Part shown: one piece after another, positions 14,397-31,358 of the stretch | Position numbering within the stretch: position 1 is the stretch's first letter | Layout of the letters: each line of letters starts with the position of its first letter | Source of the DNA: Escherichia coli | GTDB lineage: Bacteria > Pseudomonadota > Gammaproteobacteria > Enterobacterales > Enterobacteriaceae | Assembly (NCBI RefSeq): GCF_024700885.2 | Contig: NZ_CP117016.1 | Length of the DNA: 64,000 nt | Strand: one strand, 5' to 3' | Notes under the pieces: model-generated | Databases searched by the model: none | The model's input: only the letters and a program-made list of their open reading frames with translations | What the model was told of the DNA's origin: nothing | Program-made: the position numbers and the translations under genes

Positions 14397-14922
14397 CAGA
14401 CTGGTGGCCGCACCGGTAAGGCCGTTTTGCAGAAAGCGGGCGAGAGAGTCTACATCCCCATTTACCGTCTTATATCACTGGTGCTGGCAGACAGGAGTTT
14501 CATGAAACAATAACCCGAAATCACCAGTGTCGTTCAATGTGGCAACTGTTGGAAAAGGTTCGTCACTTTATGGTTACCGTCAGCCTATTCCCCGGTGGAA
14601 TGCATGGGCTAGCTAAAGTGTAGCAGTATTAGGATCTGTTATTTAGATTCGCAGGTGGGGGAGTGGGTAACGGATAATTCTACCGTAGCTAAACACAATC
14701 CGATAAATAAATAGCCCTATTGAGTTGTGGGTGGATGTAGTGATAATTGATGGATAAAAATATTATTTTTTTTGATGCTGATACCTTAATGGTTAATGAA
14801 CCAAATGGAATAATCTTAGTGTGTTGCTTTTTTATCTGACGTTAATTCCGCACTTGCTTATTATGCACAGAAAACATGGCGATAGTTTGCTAGGGTTATT
14901 TTGAGGAAAGTAAAGTATAATT

Positions 14923-15690
14923 ATGAAATGTATGAAATGGATGTGGATTGTGTCATCAAAAATACTTTTATCCCTTAGTTTTTTTTCATTTGCAAATGAA
15001 CAAGTGTTTGGAAATGTTGAAAACAATTCAAAGGTATTTTCTTTGCGTTTAGATACAACCCGTGTTGTCTATAACCAAGGTTCGTCTGGAGAAACATTGG
15101 CAGTCATTAATGAGCATGATTATCCGATATTAGTTCAGGCAGAGGTGCTGCTTGAAGACCAAAGAACTCCAGCGCCTTTTGTAATAACGCCACCACTGTT
15201 TCGGCTTGATGCTCTACAATCTAGTCGTCTTCGTATTATTCAAACTGGAGGTGATTTCCCGACAGATCGTGAAACTCTACAGTGGGTTTGTATAAAGGGG
15301 ATCCCGCCGAAAGTTGATGATAAGTGGGCTGAGGAAAATAGTAAGAATAAAGATGGTACAGATAAAGTAGCTCTAGACATACAAGTTTCTGTTAAAAGTT
15401 GCATTAAATTATTTGTCCGTCCGAAAATGGTGAAAGGTCATCCAGATGACGTTGCCGAAAATGTAAAATGGCAGAAGGTTGGTAATAGGTTGAAAGGAGT
15501 AAACCCAACACCGTTCTATATAAATCTTGCGGAATTGAAAGTGGGCGAAAAAGAAATACTGGAGCGTCATTATATAGCGCCATTTGGCTCTTATGAATAT
15601 CCTATCGATATGAATTGGAAGGGGGGGGTTACATGGAGAATAGTGACCGATTATGGTGGGATCAGTAACCAATTTGAAGCAAAGCTTTAA
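14923..15690 (+). CDS. Fimbrial periplasmic chaperone (PapD-like; AggD/AfaB class)
   Basis: 255-aa, signal peptide, chaperone-like fold sequence; first gene of chaperone-usher-invasin-pilin operon; very AT-rich. Confidence 0.65.
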   Translation: MKCMKWMWIVSSKILLSLSFFSFANEQVFGNVENNSKVFSLRLDTTRVVYNQGSSGETLAVINEHDYPILVQAEVLLEDQRTPAPFVITPPLFRLDALQSSRLRIIQTGGDFPTDRETLQWVCIKGIPPKVDDKWAEENSKNKDGTDKVALDIQVSVKSCIKLFVRPKMVKGHPDDVAENVKWQKVGNRLKGVNPTPFYINLAELKVGEKEILERHYIAPFGSYEYPIDMNWKGGVTWRIVTDYGGISNQFEAKL

Positions 15691-15708
15691 GCTTGATGAA
15701 TTTTTTTT

Positions 15709-30128: not shown

Positions 30129-30540
30129 GTGAGTCACCTCTGACTGAGAGTTTACTCACTTAGCCGCGTGTCCACTATTGCTGTGTAAGATCACTGTCAC
30201 CCTGGAAAGTTGATCTGAGCTCTCAGTAAGTATCAATACAGTCCTCGCGAGCCGCTTACGAATGAGTATGCCGGAAGATCTCTAAATGTGAATGGTTCTA
30301 TTATGTGGGATACTTACAAAGGCCTCTTACACATATCTGATTGAGGTTTTTTATTATCGAATTTTGTGTAAAATTCATTTCCTATACATAAATGTAAAAA
30401 TAACATCACCCATTGGCTCAAAAAGTGTCCATTAAAAAAGAGATGATTTAGATAAAAAAATGCACTTTGTATGCATTAATATTTTAACCATGAATTAATT
30501 TATACTAAAATGATTATTCTTCTTGTCTTGGAGATAAATT

Positions 30541-31338
30541 ATGCTAAAGGAAATAAATGACAATAAACTAACAACAAACTTTATAAGAATAAAAAGAATA
30601 ACTCTAAATGCTTTTACAATAATGCACACTGATAATTGTTTCATCACACTCAAAAATGAAAGAGATTGTATTACCTGTACTAAAGACAATTTTCTCTTTC
30701 TAGAAAAAAATATGACATTTTCATGTGAGATCGTCAAAGTTAACGAAAAACTACCGCCATTTAGTATTGTGAGTTTCGATAGAAAATCGCAAATACTACT
30801 GAAAGATATTTTGAAAGAAATATATCCACTCTTTATGGGGGGCTGTGATATTCAGAGAGAAAAAATAATTACGGAAAACTCCATTGCACCTCAGTACCAG
30901 CTATTTGAGCTTATTACAAGAACAAATGACTTAAAACTAAAAGTTATTAAATCGGCCTATCTTATAGCGACAATGAAAAATCATGCAAAGATAATAAGCT
31001 CTTTATATGCGTCATGTGGAATAACCTTTACCGATAAGGTAAAAAATGAGTTAAGAAAAGATCTATCAAAGAATTGGAAGATAAGTATGATTGCAGATAA
31101 ATTCAATATATCTGAAGTATCAGTAAGAAAGCGCCTGAGTTCAGAAAAAACATCTTTCAGTCAGTTATTACTTCAGGCCAGAATGGATAGAGCCCTTCAA
31201 TTAATCCTGGATAATGAATTACCGCTCTCCTCCGTTTCAGAAAGTATAGGAATATCTAGCATGCCATATTTCATTAGAGTATTCAAATATTTTTTTGGAA
31301 TAACACCAAAACAATTCTCAATTTATTTCAGAGAATAA
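30541..31338 (+). CDS. AraC-family virulence regulator of the AggR/Rns/CfaD class
   Basis: 265-aa, very AT-rich, C-terminal AraC HTH pair (…MIADKFNISEVSVRKRL… and …SVSESIGISSMPYFIRVFKYFFGITPKQF…); same length class as AggR/Rns. Confidence 0.6.
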   Translation: MLKEINDNKLTTNFIRIKRITLNAFTIMHTDNCFITLKNERDCITCTKDNFLFLEKNMTFSCEIVKVNEKLPPFSIVSFDRKSQILLKDILKEIYPLFMGGCDIQREKIITENSIAPQYQLFELITRTNDLKLKVIKSAYLIATMKNHAKIISSLYASCGITFTDKVKNELRKDLSKNWKISMIADKFNISEVSVRKRLSSEKTSFSQLLLQARMDRALQLILDNELPLSSVSESIGISSMPYFIRVFKYFFGITPKQFSIYFRE

Positions 31339-31358
31339 ACTATCAGTATCACTTCGTC

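Follow-up and report, generated by a model that had tools for sequence, protein, structure and literature searches.

The locus between 14.8 and 31.3 kb of a 64,000-nucleotide stretch of Escherichia coli DNA (contig NZ_CP117016.1; this whole stretch is hereafter called the window) raises the question of whether the genes by which enteroaggregative E. coli (EAEC) is recognized also exist as an intact chromosomal set. EAEC is defined and diagnosed through genes carried on pAA plasmids (aggR, aatA, aap, and the pilin genes of the aggregative adherence fimbriae, AAF), and the molecular markers of typical EAEC are aggR, aatA/CVD432, and aaiC. An earlier note, made from the letters of the window, had proposed an enteroaggregative-type module with AAF-like fimbriae, dispersin, an aatPABCD exporter, and an AggR-class regulator. 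We found eleven intact genes in this region, all on the + strand, and in BLASTP comparisons with the AAF/I plasmid pHUSEC2011-2 each of the eleven had a pAA counterpart (E values from 1e-9 to 0), which bears the proposal out. The order of the genes in the module is the same as on pAA. Judging from sequence comparison, we consider it probable (roughly 0.8) that the module represents a chromosomal sister lineage, still intact, of the core of the AggR regulon found on pAA in typical EAEC. The locus is rare and intact, and it is an unnamed member of the AAF, Aat/dispersin, and AggR/Rns families, whose components and mechanism are already known.

The module is chromosomal. The closed chromosome of strain MLI114, which was isolated from the stool of a soldier in Mali, is 100% identical to the window over the 16.8 kb queried, and the window passes unbroken into the core genes from ghrA to csg. 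The sole tRNA gene called in the window, by ARAGORN and Rfam, is a tRNA-Ser(GGA) gene (58468-58555, - strand) that we identify as serX because it adjoins ghrA, ycdX/Y/Z, and csg; the module is located 27 kb from it, inside a composite serX island. When 5,426 complete E. coli genomes were searched by megablast, the part comprising the fimbrial operon and aap was found in 53 and the aat part in 39, in every case on the chromosome and in a single copy, save for one assembly with a match split over two places. None of 72,556 plasmid records contained the module, and its DNA gave no megablast match to pAA, from which it is too diverged. Carriers thus make up approximately 1% of the closed E. coli genomes; they come from human stool, blood, dogs, cats, chicken, wastewater, rivers, and soil, and include blood isolates and strains producing extended-spectrum β-lactamases. 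The earlier note had placed the module on a chromosomal island next to serX, as found here, and had called it extremely AT-rich. The latter description is apt for the aat region (27-31% GC), the regulator region (approximately 34%), and the region from the pilin gene to aap (35%), but not for the chaperone and usher genes (38-44%), the flanks being at approximately 50%.

The fimbrial operon shows the AAF gene order, chaperone, usher, AfaD-like minor subunit, and pilin, which pair with AggD, AggC, AggB, and AggA, respectively. The first gene (14923-15690) encodes a periplasmic chaperone of the FGL class that is 67% identical to AggD, 66% to Agg3D, and 67% to AafD, and that has SafB as its best NCBIfam match (1e-71). 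It is followed by the gene for a full-length, AggC-like outer-membrane usher (15709-18315; 70% identical to AggC over 843 amino acids and 68% to Agg3C; NCBIfam model PRK15223 at 5e-263) and by that for an AfaD/AggB-like minor subunit (18331-18765; 54% identical to AggB by BLASTP and 55% in global alignment, 62% to Agg3B), which RefSeq annotates as 'AfaD family invasin'. These values were compared with those that separate the known AAF types. The usher is 68-70% identical to the AAF ushers, and AggC and Agg3C are 69% identical to each other; the chaperone is 66-67% identical to AAF chaperones that share 64-70% among themselves; and the minor subunit is 55-62% identical to counterparts that share 59%.

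The fourth gene (18876-19391) encodes the major pilin, a protein of 171 amino acids with the signal peptide MKKSIYFIICPVLSLYCGMTMA and a mature part of 149 amino acids. It contains 2 cysteines and has an isoelectric point (pI) of 9.2 in the mature and 9.25 in the precursor form, the known AAF pilins ranging from 9.2 to 9.9. Boisen et al. (2020) used a pI above 8 as a criterion for AAF pilins, by which a CS22-like pilin was excluded (PMC7500659), and the window pilin lies above this value. In BLASTP against pHUSEC2011-2 the pilin was 23% identical to AggA. In an identity matrix that covered the pilins of AAF/I, II, III, and V and two further plasmid pilin alleles, Agg4A/HdaA, AfaE/DraE, and CseA being outside the alignment, it was 27-33% identical to the pilins of the four types, which are 25-37% identical to one another. 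In the plasmid collection, no pilin more than 32% identical to it was found even at E<=10; Agg4A/HdaA, AfaE/DraE, and CseA were not among these plasmid matches, and no direct alignment with them was made. A Pfam scan assigned the pilin to no family, NCBIfam likewise gave no match, and neither RefSeq nor NCBIfam has a name for it. However, a profile built from the pilin alleles matched the Protein Data Bank entries of AggA (4PH8, 5e-8) and AafA (2MPV, 4e-6), and the top three Foldseek matches of an AlphaFold model of moderate quality (pLDDT 64.5) were AggA, AafA, and 5LVY, all of them AAF pilins. By sequence, the fimbrial proteins are therefore about as distant from AAF/I, II, III, and V as these types are from one another, and this equidistance, together with the basic pI and the profile and fold matches, indicates that the pilin represents an additional, unnamed AAF type. 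Part of this protein is absent from the public annotation: the RefSeq start in MLI114 is too far downstream and gives 151 instead of 171 amino acids, so that most of the signal peptide is lost.

Downstream of the pilin gene lies a gene for a homologue of dispersin, Aap (19917-20264; 115 amino acids, 63-66% identical to Aap on pAA plasmids). Its predicted N-terminus is the signal peptide MKKLNVSIFSIAACFSLNVFA followed by GGGGWNS, with the cleavage site between the two deduced from the alignment with Aap, and the predicted mature protein has 10.3 kDa, a pI of 9.2, and 2 cysteines; a Pfam scan assigned it to no family. AatD acylates the N-terminal glycine of its substrate before export (PMC7943197), and the glycine-rich N-terminal motif of the homologue agrees with the AatD acylation site described there. 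The exporter genes aatPABCD follow as 5 contiguous or overlapping open reading frames (22203-27135), all present as one unit. They encode AatP, an FtsX/LolCE-like ABC permease (22203-23345; 58% identical to AatP of pAA over 374 amino acids); AatA, a TolC-like outer-membrane channel (23342-24580; 51% over 404 amino acids); AatB, a periplasmic adaptor with a weak RND_mfp match (24477-25301; 58% over the full length); AatC, a LolD-like ABC ATPase (25282-25911; 71% over 209 amino acids; NCBIfam LolD at 5e-42); and AatD, an Lnt-like N-acyltransferase of 403 amino acids (25924-27135; 51%, with 403 of 403 residues aligned; NCBIfam Lnt at 7.5e-9). The overlap of aatA and aatB is 104 nucleotides in the window and 101 nucleotides on pAA. 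Residues E207, K268, E276, and C315 of the window AatD, a Glu-Lys-Glu-Cys set of the C-N hydrolase type, have the same spacing (61/8/39) as the catalytic residues E217, K278, E286, and C325 of the AatD of strain H10407, which the literature compared here reports to be essential in the enzyme of enterotoxigenic E. coli (ETEC). Because an EAEC aatD mutant was complemented by AatD homologues of only 49-54% similarity (PMC7478709), the 51% identity of AatD is compatible with a conserved function. Annotation has obscured these genes as well. RefSeq starts in MLI114 are too late for AatD (348 instead of 403 amino acids, 55 N-terminal residues being lost) and for AatB (11 residues fewer), and the pilin, the Aap homologue, AatB, and AatD all bear the label 'hypothetical protein'.

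The last gene of the module (30541-31338) encodes an AraC-type regulator of the AggR/Rns class with 265 amino acids and a C-terminal double helix-turn-helix, in which Pfam recognizes the domains HTH_18 (5e-13) and HTH_AraC (1e-5). Its closest characterized relatives are AggR, Rns/CfaD, and VirF: it is 37% identical to AggR over residues 15-264, with the shared residues mostly in the C-terminal DNA-binding half, 38% to CfaD, and 30% to VirF, the alignments with all 3 covering more than 90% of the length. In a collection of 5.8 billion proteins it forms a single cluster at 90% identity, and its next relatives, also E. coli proteins, are 44-45% identical. The closest plasmid-borne regulator (44%) is encoded on the pig-farm IncFIB plasmid CP057410.1 (14980-24622), beside an ANR-family gene and a type-1-like fimbrial operon; that region is another uncharacterized AraC/ANR/fimbria module.

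To search for sites of such a regulator we applied the promoter rule established for AggR, WWWWWWWTATC with at most 2 mismatches in the A/T tract and 21-23 bp upstream of the -10 hexamer (PMC6392122), and estimated the chance rate for each promoter from dinucleotide shuffles of its upstream region (200 bp for the chaperone gene). The candidate promoter of the fimbrial operon (14826-14864, + strand), 87 bp upstream of the chaperone ATG, consists of the box GCTTTTTTATC (14826-14836), a 22-bp spacer, and the hexamer TATTAT, a combination that occurred in 1.8% of shuffles; its T-tract/TATC box and its -10 hexamer align with the upstream regions of agg3D and aggD. For the dispersin gene, a candidate promoter (19797-19835, +) with the box GTTTTATTATC, a 22-bp spacer, and TAGTAT was found (8.3% of shuffles); its surroundings align only ambiguously with the aap promoters of pAA, and we therefore do not claim homology of this box to the pAA box. 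The candidate promoter region of aatP (22090-22149, +; 10.6% of shuffles) contains 2 TATC boxes (22090-22100 and 22111-22121), the second of which is 22 bp upstream of the -10 hexamer in the site AATAATTTATC...TATTCT. The position of both boxes is conserved in the upstream region of the pAA aatP gene, whose promoter is among those used to derive the AggR-binding-site consensus (PMC6392122). Altogether, 3 promoters of the module carry candidate AggR-type boxes with a 22-bp spacing, which suggests that they could be bound by the regulator.

Intactness and selection were analyzed by comparing the window with strain ECONIH1, which has the same island with the same insertion sequence (IS) scars and in which all eleven genes are likewise intact. 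Ten of the genes are 98.8-100% identical at the DNA level and differ by 19 synonymous and 21 nonsynonymous changes (pN/pS 0.30). The pilin gene, in contrast, is only 84% identical, and its mature part shows 11 synonymous and 68 nonsynonymous changes (dN/dS approximately 2), with a single residue different in the signal peptide. Thus, in this one strain pair, selection was purifying for ten genes and diversifying for the pilin. In the protein database, the pilin alleles form at least 8 clusters with 69-94% identity that share a near-invariant signal peptide, both cysteines, and the C-terminal strand. Conserved assembly genes combined with a hypervariable major subunit fit what is expected of an expressed surface antigen. 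Public contigs with identical protein sequences number from hundreds to more than 1,000, and most of these proteins are labeled 'hypothetical protein'.

Could the module nevertheless be something more ordinary? Gene sets of this type are classically plasmid-borne, and the IS elements at the borders could have misled the assembler into joining a segment of a pAA-type plasmid to the chromosome. We give this next to no credence: 39 genomes, each closed independently, have the 16.8-kb segment in one and the same chromosomal context, and 53 have its fimbrial part, whereas the plasmid records (0 of 72,556) lack it, megablast finds no match on pAA, and the sequence continues unbroken into ghrA-csg. 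A plasmid misassembly was therefore rejected on the strength of the chromosomal carriers and of the plasmid records. The fimbriae might also be an already named type (AAF/I-V, Afa/Dr, or CS22) that moved to the chromosome, since chaperone, usher, and minor subunit clearly belong to the AAF family and RefSeq assigns the last to the AfaD family. This is very improbable, because the pilin does not exceed 33% identity to AggA, AafA, Agg3A, Agg5A, and the two further plasmid alleles or 32% to any plasmid match, because no AAF type is closer to the usher and chaperone than the types are among themselves, and because the pilin has no name in RefSeq or NCBIfam. Identity with AAF/I, II, III, or V or with the two further alleles was rejected on the basis of the pilin value, Agg4A, AfaE/DraE, and CseA lying outside that alignment. 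The expectation of the earlier note that pilin and regulator would be divergent and possibly unnamed was thus borne out (23-33% to AggA, AafA, Agg3A, and Agg5A for the pilin, 37% to AggR for the regulator). Its label 'AAF/Afa-like' is right as to the AAF type and less precise as to Afa, and neither of the two outcomes that it had named as speaking against its proposal, a misassembled plasmid and near-identity to a named type, was encountered.

The main rival is a cryptic, decaying remnant: a system that was once functional and is now silent and eroded by IS elements, without a part in the phenotype of its carriers. In some lineages the locus has clearly gone this way. As an account of the module as a whole we regard it as unlikely, though far more probable than the two explanations above. 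Several observations weigh for it, against an intact, working module, or both. Dead fragments of IS630, IS481, IS66, IS3, IS5, and a group II intron lie around and between the units, so that IS and intron debris separates the transcription units, and decay has also reached the neighboring cargo, where iroN, iroE, and iroC have become pseudogenes and only a fragment of an EspI-like gene is left. The aatPABCD genes have been lost in 14 of the 53 carriers, and in the blood strain 4069 (NZ_CP103673.1), the only aat-less locus inspected, an IS3-linked deletion removed the regulator gene as well; there, positions 19661-21885 hold an intact IS3 in place of what extends in the window (20459-31359) from the IS481 to the IS5 fragment, with fimbrial operon and aap kept. 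The usher gene is interrupted by IS elements in NCTC 86, TUM1857, and AREA_499, and the genome paper on NCTC 86, in its passages on the locus, regards the chaperone-usher system as non-functional (PMC5382810). MLI114 was reported to have few enteropathogenic virulence genes. No convincing autoregulatory box was found upstream of the regulator gene, where the weak candidate TTTTTATTATC (30348-30358) is accompanied by a poor -10 hexamer, and tblastn with Aar and plasmid ANR queries and inspection of small open reading frames did not find an Aar/ANR anti-activator partner in the window. Because the N-terminal half of the regulator is very diverged from that of AggR, its DNA specificity is only inferred, and the selection estimates come from the single strain pair of the window and ECONIH1. 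On the other side, none of the eleven reading frames is disrupted in the window or in ECONIH1, although both carry the same old IS scars, pN/pS over ten genes is 0.30, the dN/dS of approximately 2 and the at least 8 allele clusters of the pilin fit an expressed surface antigen, and the catalytic residues and promoter boxes have been kept.

If the module, as an intact sister lineage of the AggR regulon, operates like the homologous pAA systems, from which we take the following steps, the 265-aa regulator would bind the A/T-tract and TATC boxes of the fimbrial operon, the dispersin gene, and aatPABCD. Chaperone and usher would polymerize the basic pilin with the AfaD/AggB-like minor subunit by donor-strand exchange, and the product would be a fimbria of the aggregative adherence type, itself unnamed. 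The dispersin homologue would be exported by Sec and its signal peptide cut before the GGGG motif, the exposed glycine would be N-acylated by AatD, and the LolCDE-like AatP/AatC pump, the AatB adaptor, and the TolC-like AatA channel would carry the protein to the surface. Coating the cell, it would allow the positively charged fimbriae to extend. We propose only tentatively, and at less than even odds, that the locus is a working sixth aggregative adherence fimbria that has its own regulator, dispersin, and exporter, is fixed in the chromosome, and has a pilin under immune-type diversifying selection. If this is true, an EAEC-style colonization program would exist outside the recognized pathotype and beyond the reach of aggR, aatA, and aap diagnostics, in lineages from humans, pets, poultry, and water that include Escherich's isolate of 1885, and cross-talk with plasmid AggR would be possible once a pAA plasmid enters a carrier.

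The IS debris that the earlier note had seen among the module genes could be located, and with it remnants of a group II intron. Between aap and aat, RefSeq annotates in the identical MLI114 locus an IS481-family fragment (20459-21304, - strand) and an IS66 tnpC fragment (21333-22010, + strand). Between aatD and the regulator gene, the debris spans 27195-30128 and comprises a maturase fragment, intron ends, IS481, and IS3: an IS481 copy occupies 27704-28675, a frameshifted IS3 occupies 29010-30128, and a fragment of a group II intron maturase gene lies nearby. Two inverted matches to the Rfam model RF00029 (Group II catalytic intron), at 27235-27314 (-) and 28751-28830 (+), bracket this IS481 copy, and together with the maturase fragment they are the remnant of a rearranged intron.

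The island holds further cargo, namely remnants of iro (salmochelin) genes, an EspI-like fragment, a type I restriction-modification operon with darTG, antigen 43, and a CP4-type end with yeeU/cbtA. The salmochelin remnants (10052-14456) are located immediately upstream of the module. Of their genes only iroD is intact, whereas iroN and iroC are truncated and iroE is frameshifted; they are reminiscent of uropathogenic strains, whose serX island carries iro. A short way past the regulator gene, IS5 and IS600 fragments flank an internal fragment of a gene for an EspI-like serine protease autotransporter (SPATE; 32249-33118). The type I restriction-modification operon (34120-43455, - strand) contains, between hsdR and hsdS/hsdM, the DNA ADP-ribosylation toxin-antitoxin pair DarT/DarG (darG 37950-39017, darT 39014-39670) with an adjoining M48 peptidase gene, an arrangement also seen in ECONIH1 and strain 4069. 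Immediately adjacent to the 3' end of serX is the CP4-type accessory end, with antirestriction, radC-like, yeeU/cbtA, and DUF4942 genes. No integrase gene was found between serX and the module (43455-58468), nor does the 3' end of serX recur elsewhere in the window as a direct repeat by which the far border of the island could be recognized; border and integrase must therefore be located beyond the window start. In ECONIH1, the island holds malX, a MalY/PatB gene, and a gene annotated 'enterotoxin' just past that point (positions 1-1014 of its locus). At 7683-7750, the window contains a degenerate tRNA-like sequence with the anticodon CAU that resembles ileX/ileY (30.7 bits in Rfam, with no ARAGORN call), and approximately 400 bp downstream of it the sRNA STnc100 (8169-8383, 136 bits); this stretch may be the junction of another integrative element within the composite island.

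The same locus appears in brief in two earlier papers. The genome paper of NCTC 86 (Dunne et al. 2017, PMC5382810), a phylogroup A strain that is Escherich's isolate of 1885 and a carrier of the locus, reports, in the passages that deal with it, a ROD 17 with a chromosomal Aat/dispersin homologue and an AAF-like chaperone-usher locus, from which its authors argued for a role of the system in colonization. Those passages contain no description of the regulator, the pilin polymorphism, or intact versions. A paper on CexE places the NCTC 86 polypeptide within the dispersin clade (PMC7344145). Chromosomal Aat systems are known from Citrobacter rodentium (PMC7478709, PMC7943197), and Icke et al. 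locate Aat systems on chromosomal islands or virulence plasmids, whereas Belmont-Monroy et al. describe aatD as plasmid-borne in EAEC and ETEC and as chromosomal only in C. rodentium (PMC7478709). The catalogue of E. coli chaperone-usher fimbriae by Wurpel (2013) lists AAF on plasmids only, and the paper on MLI114 detected aggR in one other isolate only (PMC10198576). In the open-access full text, we found no paper that names this fimbrial type, describes its regulator or pilin polymorphism, or puts its function to the test, and no name for the locus; it is mentioned only in the NCTC 86 and CexE papers. A chromosomal version, which the earlier note had called unusual, is therefore rare but not unheard of, given the NCTC 86 and CexE reports.

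The module matters for several reasons. A diverged chromosomal copy of genes that define a pathotype blurs the line between commensal and pathotype, and screens by PCR or of the VirulenceFinder type would miss it; in megablast, which gave no match to pAA, the module was not matched to the standard EAEC markers. As a natural experiment, the locus can help to decide whether colonization rather than disease is the function of dispersin, Aat, and AAF. Its pilin is a new family for adhesin typing and for lists of vaccine antigens, its regulator an outlier that is useful for studies of DNA recognition by AggR/Rns proteins, and its truncated RefSeq starts and 'hypothetical protein' labels expose annotation errors.

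Compared with known systems, the fimbrial operon is closest to AAF/I-V (aggDCBA, aafDA/aafCB, agg3DCBA, hdaDCBA, and agg5A, all on pAA), with which it shares the gene order; AAF are characterized by the stacked-brick adherence that they mediate on HEp-2 cells. Identity to the AAF proteins is 55-70% for its usher, chaperone, and minor subunit, its pilin is likewise basic, with two cysteines and a predicted AggA/AafA-like fold, and both have an A/T-tract and TATC box separated from the -10 hexamer by 22 bp. AAF also combine conserved assembly genes with a varying major pilin, in that operons with Agg3DCB occur with either Agg3A or Agg5A. However, AAF are borne on pAA, whereas the window module is chromosomal, in the serX island, in all 53 carriers; the window pilin is only 23-33% identical to those of types I, II, III, and V; the module has its own diverged regulator in place of AggR; and its carriers, among them NCTC 86, a commensal, as well as blood, pet, and water isolates, are not recognized as EAEC.

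The exporter resembles the Aat/dispersin systems of EAEC, ETEC, and Citrobacter rodentium (aatPABCD with aap or cexE) in its five genes, their order, and the aatA/aatB overlap. It also shares with them the catalytic residues of AatD, a substrate whose Sec signal peptide precedes an N-terminal glycine motif, and the conserved aatP boxes, and the window substrate is 64% identical to Aap. It differs in that its proteins are 51-71% identical to Aat of pAA and represent a deep paralogous lineage, that it is chromosomal in E. coli, and that 2 kb with IS debris separate aap from the downstream aatP. The regulator belongs to the length class (265 amino acids) of the AggR/Rns(CfaD)/RegA group, has the same C-terminal HTH_18 and HTH_AraC domains, and adjoins fimbrial and Aat genes with promoter boxes of the Rns/AggR type; it differs from this group in being only 37-39% identical to AggR and CfaD and in having neither an ANR (Aar) gene nearby nor a clear autoregulatory site. 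Finally, ROD 17 of NCTC 86 is the same locus, with an aat part that is 99.8-99.9% identical across the NCTC 86 assemblies and a fimbrial part that is approximately 98.2% identical, and it differs in that its usher gene is split by IS3, whereas that of the window is intact.

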